A stretch of DNA of 64,000 nt from Escherichia phage vB_EcoM_G17. Under the pieces are notes generated by a model. That model was not told where the DNA came from. It saw only the letters and a program-made list of their open reading frames with translations, and ran no database searches. Of the stretch, positions 3,001 to 63,902 are shown piece by piece; the first letter of the stretch is position 1; each line of letters begins with the position of its first letter. The position numbers and the translations under genes are program-made. The stretch is from sequence record MK327931.1. One strand, 5' to 3'.

Positions 3001-6000
3001 AGCCATTCAAAATTACAAAAACTGGAAATAAAACATCTTCTGGTATTGATATTTGTGTGGTTGAATATATTGCACCTGAAATTTTAGGTTTAGTGTCTGG
3101 ATCTTTAAATCATAGAGCAGAACCTTGGACATATGGTGATATGGGTGACATGGAATTTACATACATGAACACTACATTGTTTGCATATGACCAAATGATG
3201 CTTTTGTATAAAGCTAAACCAGCACAATTTGCTAACTATTTCTGGGATACCCGCAACGATAACTTAAAAGAAGTATTCACTGATGGTTCACAATTCCTTT
3301 ATGGTGATACACGTAAGCGTATTAATTTTGATAAAAATACAGTAGTTCATGGTGAAAATAGCACAAGAACAATTGGTTATCAAATGTTTGTAAGTGACCA
3401 TTTGATGTATCAAAATAAAAATATTACCACCAAGTATGGGGATGTAGTTCGTTCTTCTTATATAAATGTTGGTCATAAAATTGGAGGATTTACTAAAGCA
3501 GATCAGCTAACATTCAATGCTAAATCTTTCGGTCTTATTTCACAAGAAAACCAAACCATTGGTCTTGTTCGTTCTAATAATATCCGTGATGAGCAAATGA
3601 GTGCGATCAAAATTACTTGGAATGGTAGTGCATATCAGATTGATGGATATGATCTAGTTGGTGCTAAATTTAAATATAAACTTCCAGTAAAAAATGGTAG
3701 AAAAGTAACTCTTAAATTGGAAAACCGTAATGTTGTTCATTATAATGAATGGAAGTCTGAAGCTTCAATTGAATATGGTAAAGTTTTCAATAGTTACCAA
3801 GAAGTTTATACTTTTATTTGTGGATATGGTGAATATCTTAAAGAACATGGTTGGATTTTTGAAGATGTAAATGATAGTGGTGCTCAACAAGATTGGAACA
3901 CTATTGCTAAAGATTTCGTGATCTGGAGTCAGAATTCTCTAGTAACTGGTGAATTTATTTCTTGTACCCCAAGTGCTGCAAACGCTAAATTTGGGGCAGA
4001 CTTTGGTTCAGTACAATCTATTACGCAAAATAATGGTGGTGTATGGTCATTACTTGATGATAATAACCAAGGTATTCGCCAATATGAAATTGAAACTTCT
4101 CGTATTGGAAATATCTTCACTGTTAGAACTTTAGAATCTAATAAACGCATTGCATTGATTCGTTTAAGTTTGTGTTCATATGAACATGCTGTTATTTTTG
4201 ATGATAAAACTATTTTTGGTGATTACATTTATCAGCCAACATATGGTTCTATTCAAGAACTAATTAAAATGTATGGATATATTACTGGTTCATGGACTGG
4301 TCGCCTACAAGCTCCTGGATTTATTATCTTGGAAGCTGGAACACTACCATCATTTGAAAAATTAGTGTCGGATTTCCAACATTATTATGATAGTGAAACT
4401 CCAGTAAGTGATGTACAATTACAAGAGTTGTCAAACCATTTGATTGGTTATCAATCTCGTGATTATCTACAGCGTATGATTAGTAGTGATGTTAGTCGTG
4501 TTGATTTCTATAAAGGATTCATTCACGATAAAGGTACTAACCAAGTTTTAGAACGTGTACTTCGTGTTTCTAAATCATATGACACTGATGAATATAAAGC
4601 ATTACAAGAATGGGCATTTAAAATTGGTACATATGGTAATATTGATGGTAAGAAAAACCTTCAATTTAAACTAATCAATGACCAATTTAAACAACAACCT
4701 CAAATGGTTTCTTTTGATGTAAATGCAACTTCAAATGGTAATGGTAATCATATTGTATACTTCGGTGAGCAAGGTAAAGATCCTCGTTGGATTACACGTC
4801 CAAATGGTAAGTTCTCATTCCCAATGCGTAGTGGAAGAAGTGAAAACATCCAACTTCCAGATATTGGTCCAGTAACATTGGATGAAGTATCGTACACAAC
4901 AAAAGATTTCAGTACTGCATATAATGACCGCATAACTTATACTAATGGTAAAGGTGAAAATCCTGAATCTGTGTGGATGTTTAAAGACGGTAATGGTTTG
5001 TGGAACATTTTTGAATTGGTTGATACTAATGTACAAATGGTTTCTATAACACCTATTGAAAATACCGATGTGTATGCTGAACAATTTTGTAAAGTAACTT
5101 TAACTGATAATGTACCACTTGAAGATGGTGATTATTATTATTTTGTTGATGAAACTAACTTTATGCCAGATACTTTAACAGTAGAAAGTCAATATTATAC
5201 TGCTGGTTCTGATCCTAAAGTTATGGTAGTTCCATTTGACACTTCTATTGATATTGAATTTACTGATCCAGATACACGTCCACGTTTGTATCGTTATGTA
5301 TCACGTTTTGCCAGTACTGATGATCGTCAAGCTTACATTGACAAGAAATATAGTTTTAAAGCACCACAAAGTACTTTATTTGATCGTCCAACGACATATG
5401 ATGAACGTACTAACATTACTGAGCTATATCTAAACGTTTATGACCCAATTAATGGTGTTATTCCAGGTGCGGCTATGCAAAACGTAACATATACTTCACC
5501 AGTTGATCCTGCACAGTATAATAGTAATGGAGAGTTAATCCAGGCTTGGGGTGCTGATAAAGTTGGTCAAGTATGGTGGAACACTAGCACTGCATTTTAT
5601 TTGGATTATACTCGTGCAATTTATGACGCAGACGGTAATGTTGATATTGATGCAACCAATGAATACAAACGTTACAACTGGGGCCGTTTGTTACCACATA
5701 GTACCATTGATGTGTTAGAGTGGGTTTGTTCACCAGTTGAGCCATATAACTGGGACAAATACTGTAAAGATGTTGCTAAGAAAAACAAAAATAATACTAT
5801 GTATCTACCAAGTGGAACTGCACTTGAAGATAATTATAGTACATTTTTGGAATATGATAGTTCAACTGATAGTTATGTAACAAAATACTATTTCTGGGTA
5901 CGTGATACAATTTATGTACCACCACTACATACCAGAACGAAATCATGTACTGACATTGCTCGTATTATTAAAGATCCAACACAGCTAAACATTCCTTGGT

Positions 6001-9000
6001 TCGCTCCAATAAATGAAAACTCGTTTATTCTTAGTAATATGCAATTTAAAGTGAATGATGATACCAGTATTTTAACTGTTTCTTATTACATGGATAGTAC
6101 TGAAGTTGTTAAACATGACCAGTATCAACTATGTAAAGAAGGTGACAGCTATAACTTTAACCCACTAATTTGGGATTCAATGTGGAACTCACTAATTGGT
6201 CAAGAAACAACTGAATCAGGTTCTGTGATTAATTTATTATATCCAGATGTTGATAACGGTTTAGGATCAAACAAAACTTGGTTCCAAAATGTTATAGAAG
6301 CTCGTAGAAACTTTGTAGAAAGTGCTAATAATTATTATAGGTCACAAAACATAACCACTAATAGTGTTGTTATGGAAGATGTGTTTAATGTTAAAACCAC
6401 TGAAGTTAACCCTAATGAAGTTTCTTTCCGTGTGTTGTCTTACAATAATGAATTAGTTATTGCAGTTGAAAGTGATAAATTTAAAGAAAATGACGCTGTT
6501 ATTTTAAGTACTAGTGGATATCTACCAAATCCATTAACTTCTAGTGCTGTTTATTTTATTCACTTCGACGAAAATGGATATATTCAGTTAATGAATAGTC
6601 CAGCAAACGCGGGTAGTGTTGTTACTATAACGTTAGAAAACAAAGGTGAGGGACAACATAAAATGATTAAACAATCTGATTATGTTGAATCACTAGGAAC
6701 CTCATTAGACATGACTCAGTACTGGTCATATGCTGATTGGTATGATGTTGGATATGATAGTAACACGACTTATACTCAAGAGTCAAGCTTAGAAGATGCT
6801 AATACTAAAAACTACCAAGTTGGCGATATTATCAGAGTTACCGATAGTGAAAACATTTGGACATTGTATATTAAATCACAATCACGCGATTCAATTTATT
6901 GGAAAGCGATTGGTCGTGAAAACAGTACAGTTGAACTCAATGATATGCTTTACGCAGATTATAGTGTTCATAATGATAATGGTTCACTAAGCAATCGTGA
7001 AATCAACGTTCGTAAAGCACTAGCTTTACTCAAAAATTCTTTCGATTTACATCAAAGCGAAATTGTTTTTGATATGGTCAAATATGTACATGTTGAACAA
7101 AGTGTTGTGGATTGGGTATTTAAAACATCATATATCTATATTGTTGGTTTGGAACAATCATTAGTTCAAAACTATTCAAACGATAATTTGATTAATCAAA
7201 TTGTTGAATATTTTGAAGAAGTTAAACCTTATAGAACTAAAATTCGTTCACAAATAGAGCAAAAGACATCTGATGATGATTTAATAAAAGGTCTATGTAA
7301 TGATTTAGATCCTAATGGATATATTTTCGTTGATGGTTCTTGGATCAAAACTGAAAAAGATATTTGGGATTATGAGTACGCTCAATTTAATGAAATTACC
7401 CAAAAATGGGAACAGGTAGGTTCACTACCAAGTGATTTCGTTACACCAAATAGAAGATTCCAAGAAATTGATATTATTATGCATTATGATAATATTCAGT
7501 GTAAACCAAATGAAGATTTGGCAAGCATAAATGAATTAGTAAGTGTTAATAACAAATATCAATCCAATGAAAAGGATGCTGTTAGTAACTATGAATTACA
7601 ACGTTATATATATTCTTTCCCAGAATATAGTGAAGAAACTTTCGATCTTCTTATTGCTTATCAAATGCAAATCTACTATCCAGAATTGGATGTAACACTA
7701 GGAACAGCATATGGCGTTAACCAGTGGTATAAAGACCATGCGGAAGATTTAGAAGCAACTGATGAATTCACTGCTACATTGGAACGTGTTTATAAAGAAT
7801 CAACGCATAACGATATGTTTACTGACCTTAGACAATATGTTCAGTATAACACATTGGCAAACCGTTTGAAACTTTATAAAGATATAAGTGATGAGAAAAT
7901 TCACGATGAAGTTGGATGTGGATTTAGTGGACTTACTTATAATGACAATCCTAGTACTAGACTTCCATTAGGCTTTTCTTCTAGTAATGATTATAACTAT
8001 GGATATTTTGAAATAAGCAGTGAATTGTATCAAAAATACATTTCATTAATTAAAGATAAAAATCCTGACGCATCAGACTATGAAGTAAAAGTTAAACTTG
8101 AAGTTGAGTATGGTGTATATGTTTATCGTTATGATGAAGTAGGTGGTGATACCCGTTTCTATACTGATGCTATTCACGTATTAGCAGGTATGAGAGGGTT
8201 ATTCGACAAAGACGCTACTGATAAGTACGAAAAAGCTGAAGAGATTCTTAGTAAGACCCCAATTGATATCTATGCAATTACAATGATTCCACGAAAATAT
8301 GTTTACTTAAATGTTAACGGTGTATATCAAAGTATACCTGATGAACAAAGTATTGATGATTTCATGGAAGATTATTTTATCACAAATGGTGAAATGGTTG
8401 AACTAGCTGAAATAAATCTTGATGATTTACCACTAGATCAAAATAATCCAATGTATTCTGATTATCAATATATACTTGATAGTATTACTGAAGCTAAGTA
8501 CTTCAATGATATGAATGCATTTGATAACCTAGCATTGGAATCTCAAACTTCTTCAATAAAATGGGAAGTTAAAGATGATGAAGTTGATCCTTATATTGTG
8601 GATATATCTGACATAAACCCTTCTGGGCGTGATGTAGGTCAAATTAGATTTACAGTTGATGGATATGGGTTTGACAATGTATCTCTTGTACAATTACGTG
8701 ATAACAGCAGATATCAAACTGAAGGTATGGCAATTATCAATCCATATAAACATACAGAAGCAATTGTAAGTATTCCTTCATATGCTAAGATTGAAAATGA
8801 TATTAATAAAACAACATCGAAGTTTGATGAAAAATATTTCTATCGTGTGAGATCTATTAATAGCTTAACTGAAGCAGAAATAGTTGACAATGACCTATCT
8901 GATGGTGATAAGGTGATGATTTTCACTCCTGATGGTGAAGATTTTGTGAGATATCAAAATCACACATGGGAAACAATCTTGCGTGTATCTAACATCAAAA

Positions 9001-59847: not shown

Positions 59848-60432
59848 TTATTTTGTAATGTTTAGTTTAGAAACGAAGTATTCTTTGGCTTCTTCATATG
59901 TCATTGAAGTATACATAGGATTCCATTTATCGTCAATATCGATAAGTACTTTAACTTCCATTACATCTTCTGGTGTATAGAATTGCCATGTATTGTGATC
60001 TGGCTCATAGTTAGGGTCCAGTACAAAAACCGTACCATCCTGACCATAAACTTCTCCATCCTCTAATAGCTCACGGAAGAAATCTTCTCCAGTAGTTGGG
60101 TCTTCGTATGCATTATAAAAACGAAAAACAACATTCTCAACATCTGTTCGGGTAGTACCATCGTCTTCATCATATTCCACCAAACGGTCCTGATGAAATA
60201 CTAGGTCAATTGCACCAATGCGAGGTTTATTATGTGGAGTTTTGATTTCTTGCTGGGAATTGTAATCAATACGTTCAGTACTGATGAATACTCCACTAGG
60301 GGTAATTTCAATACCAGACACATTTTCTGGTGAATAGTAAGCGTCACACATGTCATCAATGTGCATGTGCTCATGATACACTTCCATTTCAGGATTCTGC
60401 AACAACAGTGCTGCTAAGTCTTTTGCTTTCAA
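59848..60432 (-). CDS. Hypothetical protein (194 aa), paralog of 61168-61815
   Basis: N-terminus MKAKDLAALLLQNPEMEVYH...TPSGVF versus MKSHELAKLLLSQPNLEIYH...TPSGIF; C-terminal Y.EA motif shared. Confidence 0.55.
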   Translation of the reverse strand: MKAKDLAALLLQNPEMEVYHEHMHIDDMCDAYYSPENVSGIEITPSGVFISTERIDYNSQQEIKTPHNKPRIGAIDLVFHQDRLVEYDEDDGTTRTDVENVVFRFYNAYEDPTTGEDFFRELLEDGEVYGQDGTVFVLDPNYEPDHNTWQFYTPEDVMEVKVLIDIDDKWNPMYTSMTYEEAKEYFVSKLNITK

Positions 60433-61167: not shown

Positions 61168-61815
61168 TTATTTTTCAATTTTATCAATCATAGAAGGTGA
61201 TACTTTAACATTGAATTCAGAATCAGGAAAATCTTTAGAAAATGATTCATTTTGTTCTTGTGAAAGTTCTTTTTTCGGTGGAAATAACATTTTGGCTAAA
61301 TTTTTACCACATTCAATTGCTTCATCATATGACATATTTTCCCATGTTTCATGCCAAGTATTAGGATCATATTCTGTCAGTACTGAAATGAAATCAATAT
61401 CATCAGATGTATAACAAACAGCATGTTGATTAGAGAATTGTGTTGATTTATTTTTACCTAATAAAACAATTGGCTTTTCATAAGGAATGTTAAATACCAA
61501 CCCATATTCTAAGCTAAGAACAGTTTGAATATGTGAACCCTCCAATTTTGGAGTAATAGTACCATCCTTAAAGAAAATTTGCACATGACCCAAGAGGGGG
61601 GTTTCGTATGGTGTAAGTACATTTTCAGAAACTGATGTAGGTTTTACCGTTGTGAAAATACCAGATGGTGTAACCATTAATCTATTATCAAAATTCTGAT
61701 AATGCAAGTCACTCTCTGCATCATAATGATAAATTTCTAGATTTGGTTGAGATAGTAGTAATTTTGCTAACTCATGCGATTTCATATTATTTCTCCAAAA
61801 GAAAAGGAGAGTCAT
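61168..61815 (-). CDS. Hypothetical protein (215 aa), paralog of 59848-60432
   Basis: See paralog entry; AAGGAGAG SD. Confidence 0.55.
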   Translation of the reverse strand: MTLLFFWRNNMKSHELAKLLLSQPNLEIYHYDAESDLHYQNFDNRLMVTPSGIFTTVKPTSVSENVLTPYETPLLGHVQIFFKDGTITPKLEGSHIQTVLSLEYGLVFNIPYEKPIVLLGKNKSTQFSNQHAVCYTSDDIDFISVLTEYDPNTWHETWENMSYDEAIECGKNLAKMLFPPKKELSQEQNESFSKDFPDSEFNVKVSPSMIDKIEK

Positions 61816-61833
61816 AGCGACTCTCCATATAGT

Positions 61834-62274
61834 TTATTGTAAAACTTTAAGTTTGTAAAGTGTTCCTTCAACAAAACTCATAATATCTTCTAATGTGTTT
61901 ACACTGCCGTAATCACCCGATTCTTCAAGCATATCATGAATTGCTCTGCATTGCTCAACATATTCTTCAAGAATTGGTACACAATCTTCAATTGGTGTAA
62001 AACGATAACTATTACCAGTCCCAACTTGCAAAGCACCACGATTATTCATGATACCTTCAACAAATGCGTCTACATATTCTGGTAATTCTTTATATAGTTC
62101 ATCTAATTGTAAATGCTTTGTATAAAAATGACATTGTAAGTGCCAGTTATGTGCAGCAGAACTTAAAAACAAACTATTTTCAATAAAAGTTAATAGTACT
62201 TCATCATATGAATTATCTTCTTCAGTACTTCCGATAAAGTCCATTACGTGTCGTAAATCATTAATATCTTCCAT
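61834..62274 (-). CDS. Dps/ferritin-like four-helix-bundle protein candidate
   Basis: AHNWHLQCHFYTKHLQLDELYKELPEYVD resembles Dps helix A-B (HW...G..F...H..L.E.....E..D); C-terminal D....L.D.......L motif. Confidence 0.45.
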   Translation of the reverse strand: MEDINDLRHVMDFIGSTEEDNSYDEVLLTFIENSLFLSSAAHNWHLQCHFYTKHLQLDELYKELPEYVDAFVEGIMNNRGALQVGTGNSYRFTPIEDCVPILEEYVEQCRAIHDMLEESGDYGSVNTLEDIMSFVEGTLYKLKVLQ

Positions 62275-62306
62275 AATATCTCTCCTTAGAGTTATTCTCT
62301 TATTAT

Positions 62307-62735: not shown

Positions 62736-63425
62736 TCACTTCGTTCTCTCGTAACTCAAGAAGTCACTGCGTTTACTTCGTAAACTAGTTCCTTCTGAAA
62801 ATGATAATGTACTTTAAAAACTTGACGGGATTTGTTGAGGACTATTACATCCCCCCGCAGGGGAATGAAGGTAATAAAAAAGAGACAATTAAGTCTCTCT
62901 TGACGATGATGGCATCGGATATTATCGAATTGCGAATTTCTCAAATTTTGGACGGATCTTTCTTGTACCAAAATTTAGAGAGCGAAAGCGGGTTGCTCGG
63001 TTTCTCTCTATCGCAGTCATATGCAACGGTCGCTGGTCTTTTCATCAACAGCACTCAGTACTAACTCTATTCGATCAAAGTAGTACTTGTTCTCAAATTT
63101 TGGACGCAACTTTCTTGTAAAAATTGCGTCCGCTATTCTTGAACTCCCTTAGCAAATCTGGTAAGGTGCGAACCTTATACATCTATCTAGGAACTCTCTG
63201 TATGCTTATCGGAGTTCTTTATACAGCCGTGTCGCCGTGATTCGTGGTCTTACATCGTGTTTGTTTGAATGCCAGTACTCTAACAGGTTTCTTCTGCTGT
63301 TCGCTACAACGGTAAAGCTCATCTATCCTTTACATTTTCAAGAGAAGTAGGTTCTCAGTGTCCATTTTTCAATGTCCGTTGTCATTTTCTATATACATTA
63401 TATCATTGGAACATATAATGTCCCA
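62736..63425. other. ORF-free structured region with duplicated 30-nt motif; candidate ncRNA or regulatory region
   Basis: About 690 bp without a convincing ORF; visibly more G+C than the flanks; 17+10-nt direct repeat TTCTCAAATTTTGGACG-nnn-CTTTCTTGTA at 62938-62970 and 63089-63120; perfect hairpins including CCCC-CGCA-GGGG (62851), AGAGAC-AATTAA-GTCTCT (62881), GGACGCAA/TTGCGTCC (63102-63131) and TAAGGT-GCGA-ACCTTA (63160). Confidence 0.3.
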
Positions 63426-63902
63426 TTACATGTATACTTTTTTTAAATCCTTAGAACAACGATCAAAAATTGTGTTTATGAATTCAACATCTTCGATAAT
63501 ATTCGAATCGTTAGCAACATTTTCATTTCTTGTCGTGTTCCTATATGTGTGTTCAGGATGATTGTATACCACCTTGACTACATTATTTAGGTCTATAAAA
63601 TTTGACGTTTTTTGCGTATAGGAAGCCTGAAGCTTGATGAGTTTACCATCATTCTCAAGATTGGTTTTATGAATTAGTTCTTCAATGCCAGTTAAATGGC
63701 TATAGCTATCTTTTTCTTTTACAAAAGTAATAGTAACAAGAACTGCTTTCTCATCTCCCATATCGGAAATGTTTTTTACAGCACTGATAATTTCTAAGTT
63801 TGAAAAATCTAATTCTTTAAGCATTTTACAAATATTTCCACAAAGTTCGATAAGTGATAATTTCTTCTCTGGTAACAGAAACTTCATTGCACTTAACACC
63901 AT
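63426..63902 (-). CDS. Hypothetical protein (158 aa); start uncertain
   Basis: ORF; an overlapping 54-codon ORF in another frame begins at about 63987, so the true start and upstream context are unclear. Confidence 0.45.
   Translation of the reverse strand: MVLSAMKFLLPEKKLSLIELCGNICKMLKELDFSNLEIISAVKNISDMGDEKAVLVTITFVKEKDSYSHLTGIEELIHKTNLENDGKLIKLQASYTQKTSNFIDLNNVVKVVYNHPEHTYRNTTRNENVANDSNIIEDVEFINTIFDRCSKDLKKVYM

Follow-up and report, generated by a model that had tools for sequence, protein, structure and literature searches.

Introduction

In Dps mini-ferritins the crossover loop between helices B and C contains a short BC helix, located at the two-fold axis. The ferroxidase centre of Listeria Dps is built from His31 of one subunit and Asp58 and Glu62 (with Glu55 and Glu59) of the neighbouring subunit, and has been described as probably the sole position conserved in all Dps proteins (PMC8389677). 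Canonical Dps genes are also carried by Lactobacillus plantarum myophages, 'Gratiaviridae' gut phages and Campylobacter phage CPT_0123; these were recognized by the respective authors as close homologues of cellular Dps (e.g. 30% identity to Helicobacter Dps, E = 4e-12), and were proposed to aid oxidative-stress tolerance of the host during infection (PMC6669764, PMC8008677, PMC2853527). Host dps is strongly induced early in lytic infection of Yersinia ruckeri (PMC7354516). The present analysis concerns a likewise phage-borne, Dps-like protein of 146 amino acids (aa), encoded at positions 61834..62274 of a 64,000-nucleotide stretch (the window) of Escherichia phage vB_EcoM_G17 (sequence record MK327931.1). 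The window shows 100% identity to Escherichia phage Sharanji, one of the jumbo myoviruses (350 kb) in the PBECO4/121Q/phAPEC6 group (Asteriusvirus); the gene is not mentioned in the Sharanji paper. An earlier sequence-only reading had reported the open reading frame (ORF) without a strand and had proposed by eye that its product is Dps-like; the ORF is real, lies on the minus strand and opens with ATG.

The evidence set out below makes it rather probable that the protein is a Dps-type mini-ferritin of a phage lineage, which would remove Fe(II) and peroxide at predicted intersubunit sites, probably as a 12-mer, and would thereby protect the infected cell. The protein family around Dps is well known; the branch in question is divergent and apparently confined to phages, and is no new kind of system.

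Sequence relationship to Dps

The whole 94-position profile of Pfam family DUF5856 (PF19174) aligns with the protein (positions 1-94; E = 1.9e-28; 99.8 bits, cut-off 34.6), and PHROG 858, labelled 'starvation-inducible transcriptional regulator', is matched too (E = 1.9e-35). When the single sequence was searched against the PDB every match at E < 0.2 was a Dps-family protein, with marginal scores; the best, Borrelia NapA (whole-sequence E = 2.3e-4), aligns over residues 90-144, the C-terminal helix pair, which bears out the earlier claim that the C-terminal helix resembles Dps. A profile of 95 diverse family members put the relationship on firm ground. Its 25 PDB matches at E <= 0.01 are all Dps-family proteins except one de novo helical design, which has no independently significant stretch, and no classical ferritin is among them. 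The best is S. aureus Dps (2d5k, E = 2.5e-9), followed by B. subtilis MrgA (2chp, E = 1.2e-7), B. anthracis Dlp-2 (1jig, E = 2.6e-7), Listeria innocua Dps (E = 1e-6) and H. pylori NAP (E = 2.1e-5). As judged from these profiles, the Dps resemblance is not due to chance. The match to the Pfam Ferritin family (PF00210) reaches only 18.6 bits, below the gathering threshold of 24.5 (E = 0.0019).

The host's own Dps is a remote relative, with hhalign E-values against E. coli Dps of 0.044 for the narrow alignment and 0.001 for the wide profile, which argues for an old phage lineage and not for recent capture from the host. Compared with the canonical phage Dps proteins, DUF5856 forms a separate, deeply diverged and apparently virus-restricted lineage that is missed by the standard Dps and Ferritin models. 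Identical proteins (100%) occur in phAPEC6 (gp306c) and 121Q (gp518); 27 homologues with 53-99% identity all carry DUF5856, and the group is under purifying selection. At E <= 1e-3 the profile search collected 772 representative clusters, and tblastn located the family in 179 phage records, among them RaK2-like jumbo phages, T4-like Aeromonas and Klebsiella phages and Klebsiella Ackermannviridae. Members matched by DUF5856 include T4 rI.-1, CBB_169 of Pectobacterium phage CBB and gp108 of Klebsiella phage ValerieMcCarty03 (VMC03). When 185,579 species genomes of bacteria and archaea were scanned with patterns that reach close relatives only, the RaK2-type subfamily had no relative among them. 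No mention of DUF5856 was found in the literature searched.

Ferroxidase-site residues

Residue conservation was counted over 149 sequences, the query and 148 diverse relatives, aligned with MAFFT. H45, H54 and E73 are present in 149 of 149, D69 and Y61 in 148 and Y140 in 145. In the HMMER alignment of the family consensus with Listeria Dps the pairs are H42/H28, H45/H31, H54/H43, D58/D47, Y61/Y50, E66/E55, D69/D58 and E73/E62, and the A-B turn of Dps is longer by three residues. At the level of sequence, the invariant or nearly invariant positions H45, H54, D69 and E73 thus align with Listeria H31, H43, D58 and E62, and the 146-aa protein has every one of the ferroxidase residues, so that the ferroxidase-residue check proposed with the original Dps call comes out in its favour; the title of PDB entry 2bjy names an H31G-H43G mutant, i.e. 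one from which Listeria H31 and H43 were removed. The helix pair on which that call was based, AHNWHLQCHFYTKHLQLDELYKEL, corresponds to residues 41-64 and is indeed Dps-like. The segment from H45 to E73, comprising the end of helix A and helix B and including Y61 and E66, spans 62056..62142 on the minus strand, where the codons were checked by eye (H45 62140-62142; H54 62113-62115; D58 62101-62103; D69 62068-62070; E73 62056-62058).

Other positions are less constant: H42 is His in 95 and Trp in 48 of the 149 sequences, D58 is Asp in 61, and N43 is variable. Two alternative registers were considered and dropped. One equated H42 with E. coli H51 on the grounds of equal spacing (12 residues); the other, obtained with HMMER and hhalign from the narrow alignment and anchored on Trp, made N43 equivalent to the ligand His. 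Both are artefacts of the narrow alignment and were set aside because H45, and neither H42 nor N43, is invariant in the 149-sequence alignment and because the wide profile pairs H45 with Listeria H31.

The conserved ligands are confined to helices A and B, and H54 is separated from D69 and E73 by 15-19 residues along one helix. Given helix geometry, this spacing would allow a site only across the two-fold dimer, and the arrangement we infer from the residue pattern is therefore the intersubunit one of Dps and not that of ferritin or bacterioferritin. The competing view that the protein is another ferritin-like enzyme with an intrasubunit di-metal site (ferritin, bacterioferritin, rubrerythrin, Mn-catalase or a DUF-type ferritin-like protein) is highly improbable. 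Matches of those kinds share 8-11% identity with the phage protein as against 15-23% for Dps, the sequence profiles match essentially Dps only, bacterioferritin chains give lower template-modelling (TM) scores (~0.5), and helices C and D have no Glu or His that is conserved in the 149 relatives; a classical ferritin or bacterioferritin would have its di-iron site within one subunit, with ligands on C and D as well.

Comparison with the Firmicute-type Dps proteins (Listeria innocua Dps/Fri, 2d5k, 2chp, 1jig) shows the pattern HxxH...H...D..Y.......D...E to be common to both, and the lengths are similar (146 aa versus 146-156 aa). However, identity to the Firmicute-type proteins is only ~20%, the A-B turn of the phage-encoded protein is the shorter by the three residues noted above, its Trp precedes the ligand His (W44-H45) whereas in Listeria Dps it follows (H31-W32), and it is much more acidic. 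The acidic residues of the Listeria three-fold entry pore are Glu118, Asp121, Asp126 and Asp130. In the phage protein the C-D turn motif SGDYGSVNTLEDI matches GDYGTANIMDDI of Borrelia NapA. Ungapped extension from Y140/W144, a mapping that is not a tool alignment, would place Asp130 at N126, which is Asn in 65 and Ser in 51 of the 149 sequences; the inner-pore Asp of Firmicute-type Dps thus appears to be replaced by Asn or Ser in the phage family.

Predicted fold

AlphaFold2 models were obtained with the narrow alignment (predicted local distance difference test, pLDDT, 81.7) and with a 94-sequence alignment (pLDDT 89.3, predicted TM score 0.80; the five models 87-89, the helical core 94-98). 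Both place helices at residues 8-15, 21-47 (A), 51-79 (B), 95-118 (C) and 122-144 (D), with a 15-residue B-C crossover at residues 80-94 and a low-confidence acidic segment at the N-terminus. The modelled structure is a ferritin-like four-helix bundle with a long B-C crossover, as in Dps mini-ferritins; the outcome that would have told against the sequence-only reading, a fold other than such a bundle, did not appear. The BC helix of Dps is not predicted in the crossover loop of the phage protein: residues 80-94 are coil in both models, which are of the monomer and may miss an interface helix.

In a Foldseek search of the PDB, Dps/Dpr chains account for 48 of the top 50 matches. The top match is the cellular Agrobacterium tumefaciens Dps (1o9r, ~16% identity), and comparisons with Listeria, Bacillus and Streptococcus Dps give TM scores of 0.65-0.69 with root-mean-square deviations of ~3.4-3.7 Å (0.64-0.69 for the Firmicute-type proteins listed above, which have the same four-helix-bundle topology). 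With the better model, too, E-values from Foldseek are no lower than about 1e-2, which we read as the usual scoring difficulty for short helical bundles; for this reason the case for Dps is carried chiefly by the sequence profile (best E = 2.5e-9, with essentially Dps matches only) and by residue conservation, and not by Foldseek statistics.

Charge, DNA binding and database labels

The calculated mass of the protein is 16,895 Da, its isoelectric point (pI) is 4.30 and its net charge is about -20. Nine of the first 30 residues are acidic and one is basic, and the first 20 contain one Lys or Arg. For E. coli Dps the corresponding values are pI 5.7, charge -4 and four Lys or Arg in the first 20 residues, and the lysine-rich tail that marks the DNA-binding subset of Dps proteins (E. 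coli Dps type) is lacking in the 146-aa protein. The pI values are 4.2-4.6 in the RaK2-type subfamily, and the median over the family is 4.87.

Similarity to Dps is already hinted at in databases, where 121Q gp518 is called a 'starvation-inducible DNA-binding protein', JGI uses 'DNA-binding ferritin-like protein' and PHROG 858 carries the label given above. Taken literally, the PHROG and RefSeq labels would make the protein a DNA-binding protein or a starvation-inducible transcriptional regulator. Apart from the labels themselves, only a weaker match to phrog_3636 'DNA binding protein' (E = 1.5e-6) points that way, and there is very little chance that this reading is correct. With pI 4.3, a charge of about -20 and no lysine tail, the terms 'DNA-binding' and 'transcriptional regulator' are unsupported; the N-terminus is acidic, the low family median pI agrees, the Pfam search of the protein found no DNA-binding domain, and the top Foldseek match, 1o9r, is titled as protecting DNA without binding it, which provides a precedent for a Dps acting by iron/peroxide chemistry alone. 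The label is apparently garbled from 'DNA starvation/stationary phase protection protein Dps'.

The RefSeq label 'starvation-inducible transcriptional regulator' is attached to T4 rI.-1 (NC_000866 58819-59205; positions 1320-1706 of the T4 region L008) and to its GAP32, CBB and PBECO4 relatives. Neither experiment nor sequence supports it, yet annotation based on Pharokka/PHROG continues to spread it; the same label has also been put on prasinovirus proteins (PMC11408933).

T4 RI.-1 and lysis timing

A relative is present in phage T4, whose RI.-1 (gene rI.-1, alias MobD.6, NP_049716.1; 128 aa) matches DUF5856 with E = 5e-33. Like the 146-aa protein it has the H..H, H, D, E set, is the product of a small, non-essential accessory gene and bears the same PHROG label. 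The two proteins are only 23% identical, RI.-1 is without the acidic extension at the N-terminus and has a C-D turn ~8 residues shorter, and it is only mildly acidic (pI 5.6). rI.-1 is the last gene of the rI.1-rI-rI.-1 operon, which functions in lysis inhibition. Over-expression of rI.-1 from a plasmid slightly delays the collapse of lysis inhibition, acts in synergy with rIII and relieves RIII toxicity (PMC2962797). In two laboratory sublines of T4 rI.-1 is frameshifted (PMC8573959), and the gene is therefore dispensable in the laboratory. A relationship to ferritin or Dps is not mentioned in the passages of these papers that were consulted.

These observations raise the alternative that the protein is a lysis-timing accessory factor like T4 RI.-1, contacting RIII, RI or the holin T, with the ferritin-like fold as mere scaffold. 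T4 rI.-1 is a bona fide family member within the rI operon, its over-expression slightly prolongs lysis inhibition with rIII synergy, and the VMC03 homologue also adjoins a lysis-inhibition gene. However, RaK2-like phages have no recognizable RI, RI.1, RIII or T holin (PMC3622015), and since RI, RIII and T are lacking there, a dedicated role in lysis inhibition is unlikely in that lineage. Nor were any families of the T4 lysis-inhibition module, or other lysis-related families, found among the neighbours in the window, which is what was searched, and not the whole Sharanji genome; the upstream neighbour of the gene is not conserved even in CBB. A role in protein contacts also leaves four invariant metal-ligand residues across 149 relatives unexplained, and the T4 phenotype is weak, based on over-expression and equally compatible with general protection of the infected cell. 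A function in lysis timing is accordingly quite improbable, and the mini-ferritin reading offers a simple account of the T4 over-expression phenotype, namely cultures that are less prone to collapse.

A thymidine kinase gene lies within a few genes of the family member in CBB (2391-2894 and 3175-3423 of region L003), VMC03 (4226-4825 of L007) and T4 (2264-2845 of L008), a loose linkage in very distant phages.

Occurrence in virion preparations

The protein itself has been detected by mass spectrometry. The identical phAPEC6 gp306c, listed as a 'hypothetical protein' of 16.90 kDa, was identified with 6 unique peptides and 65.8% coverage by electrospray tandem mass spectrometry of virions purified on CsCl (PMC7247149); the listed mass fits the 16,895 Da calculated here, and its coverage ranks 7th of the 62 proteins in the virion table. 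Proteins that evidently co-purified have lower coverage in the same table (thymidylate synthase 10.7%, RecA-like 6.7%, SSB 17.1%; PMC7247149). In Pectobacterium phage CBB, of another genus, CBB_169 (56% identity; DUF5856 E = 2.7e-25) was found with 3 peptides and 26.3% coverage and annotated as 'structural protein' (PMC5259590). In the T4-like Klebsiella phages ValerieMcCarty03 and ValerieMcCarty04, gp108 and gp100 (DUF5856 E = 5.2e-34) were represented by 26 and 27 spectra, respectively, in CsCl-purified particles (PMC13119998).

It is possible, although somewhat doubtful, that the protein genuinely belongs to the virion. As a Dps-like particle or subunit it would then be packaged inside the head or attached to the capsid, and would shield the encapsidated genome from iron/peroxide damage or reach the next host. 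Its biochemistry could be the same as in an intracellular scavenger; the place and time of action would differ. This possibility draws on the appearance of family members in three independent CsCl-purified preparations from two unrelated phage lineages, on the coverage of gp306c, well above the 7-17% of the obvious non-structural co-purifiers, on the position of CBB_169 within a list of mostly structural proteins, and on peptide-spectrum match counts for VMC03/04 gp108/100 that are similar to those of neck and baseplate proteins. An unassigned inner body in phAPEC6 heads and a suggestive, single case of a fusion gene (P0085, below) that follows terminase and portal genes point in the same direction. 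However, the gene lies among small non-structural genes and outside the structural module, GAP32_165 is not annotated as structural, and the RaK2 homologue gp015 is named in the RaK2 paper as a host-interaction candidate only. A charge of about -20 per subunit makes an odd partner for densely packed DNA, a stable 12-mer could merely co-purify with virions, Table 1 of the phAPEC6 study includes non-structural proteins, and the contexts of the other fusions are uninformative. The broader proposition, that DUF5856 proteins including T4 RI.-1 are virion-associated mini-ferritins carried with or in the particles of large myoviruses, is unlikely as matters stand. If it were true, the packaged genome could be protected in storage, or Fenton and reactive-oxygen damage could be blunted at the start of infection, and the capsid-plus-ferritin pairing would be reminiscent of encapsulins. 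In encapsulins a ferritin-superfamily cargo protein, of a different ferritin-like subfamily, is combined with an HK97-fold shell; the analogy bears on packaging in the virion only.

The DUF5856 domain also occurs fused to regions of 100-600 aa without Pfam identity (P0085, P0046, P0054, P0084, P0149, P0156, P0176). In P0085, encoded at 7738-8796 of a JGI metagenome contig (L009), the fusion comes right after the portal and terminase large subunit genes, where a scaffold or prohead protease is usually encoded, and it is the sole fusion located in a head module. Its N-terminal domain gave only a sub-threshold hint of DUF2213 (E = 0.18) and no relative in the PDB. The genomic contexts of P0176, P0149, P0156 and P0046 were uninformative. 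The same contig encodes, at 3568-3786, a 72-aa protein with a precomputed Pfam match to Acb2_Tad1_hairpin, a family of anti-defence nucleotide sponges.

Expression signals and neighbouring genes

The coding sequence (16.9 kDa product) runs on the minus strand from the ATG at 62272-62274 to the TAA at 61834-61836 and is preceded by a strong ribosome-binding site, the Shine-Dalgarno sequence AAGGAG at 62282..62287, with a 7-nt spacer to the ATG. A hairpin scan and folding revealed an element resembling an intrinsic terminator on the same strand at 61796..61826, beginning 8 nt past the stop, with the form GGAGAGTC-GCTAT-GACTCTCC followed by TTTTCTTTTG; the hairpin and T-run extend from 61826 to 61806, with a centroid energy of -13.9 kcal/mol (z = -4.3 versus shuffles). 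The CBB homologue has a terminator-like hairpin of different stem sequence at the equivalent position, 4 nt past its stop (1931-1951 of L003). The unit kept across genera is thus the gene and its terminator.

No promoter could be assigned, sigma-70-like sites being at chance level (29 found, 24.4 expected). The T4 late motif TATAAATA is absent from the 64-kb window and the timing of expression cannot be assigned from it; a literature search turned up no transcriptome for phages of the PBECO4/121Q/phAPEC6 type. The count of zero for TATAAATA on both strands of positions 1-64000, where 9.5 +/- 3.3 are expected from dinucleotide-preserving shuffles, amounts to a marked avoidance of this T4-type late-promoter motif in an AT-rich genome.

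The gene stands within a long series of small minus-strand genes of unknown function, and no Pfam family was found in six of its seven neighbours. Just downstream is the mechanically called ORF 61168..61815 (minus), which begins within the terminator hairpin. It is a paralogue of the ORF at 59848-60432 (minus; 24% identity, E = 3e-10); the SHEFM2K record places both in phrog_18200, and neither has a Pfam family. The paralogue aligns only from residue 11 on (MKSHEL...) and this internal ATG is preceded by GGAGAAATAAT, for which reasons the true start is probably near 61785; long-form annotations of this ORF (e.g. SHEFM2K M2K_0601) are likely to be 10 codons too long. The stretch 63426-63902 (minus) encodes a 158-aa protein that belongs over its full length to Pfam DUF7325 (E = 1.1e-54), another uncharacterized family. 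At 62972-63425, ~450 nt of an otherwise tightly packed gene array have no minus-strand ORF of at least 40 aa; SHEFM2K has only annotated ORFs of 29-38 aa there, with no PHROG. Several sigma-70-like sites lie here on the two strands, among them an extended -10 site (63424->63397), and the region might act as a promoter or other regulatory region of the unit whose last gene is the Dps-like one.

Proposed mechanism and significance

In the mechanism considered here, each subunit would be a four-helix bundle, and two subunits would pair around a two-fold axis, bringing H45 and H54 of each chain opposite D69 and E73 of its partner, where E66 is nearby; as in Dps, there would be two intersubunit metal sites per dimer. 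Dimers would probably close into a 12-mer cage of roughly 200 kDa. Fe(II) would be bound at these sites and oxidized by H2O2 or O2, and its product sequestered; Fenton chemistry in the infected cell would thereby be lowered, and replicating phage DNA protected, over the long infection of a jumbo phage. Action would be through removal of iron and peroxide; neither coating of DNA nor regulation of transcription is expected, given the extreme acidity and the absence of a basic tail. The protein would be abundant or stable enough to be recovered with CsCl-purified virions.

The searched literature contains no account of an invariant Dps ferroxidase tetrad across this family, of the membership of T4 RI.-1 or of a link to the three virion proteomes. 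The present results identify a 'hypothetical' or 'structural' protein of two jumbo-phage virion proteomes as Dps-like, and flag a propagating mis-annotation ('transcriptional regulator'). T4 rI.-1, so far known by a weak lysis-inhibition phenotype only, gains a testable biochemical hypothesis. Among large myoviruses an accessory function of this kind, a Dps-like iron/peroxide scavenger, appears to be widespread and to include the long-unexplained T4 rI.-1, which suggests that control of iron and reactive oxygen species matters for long infections.
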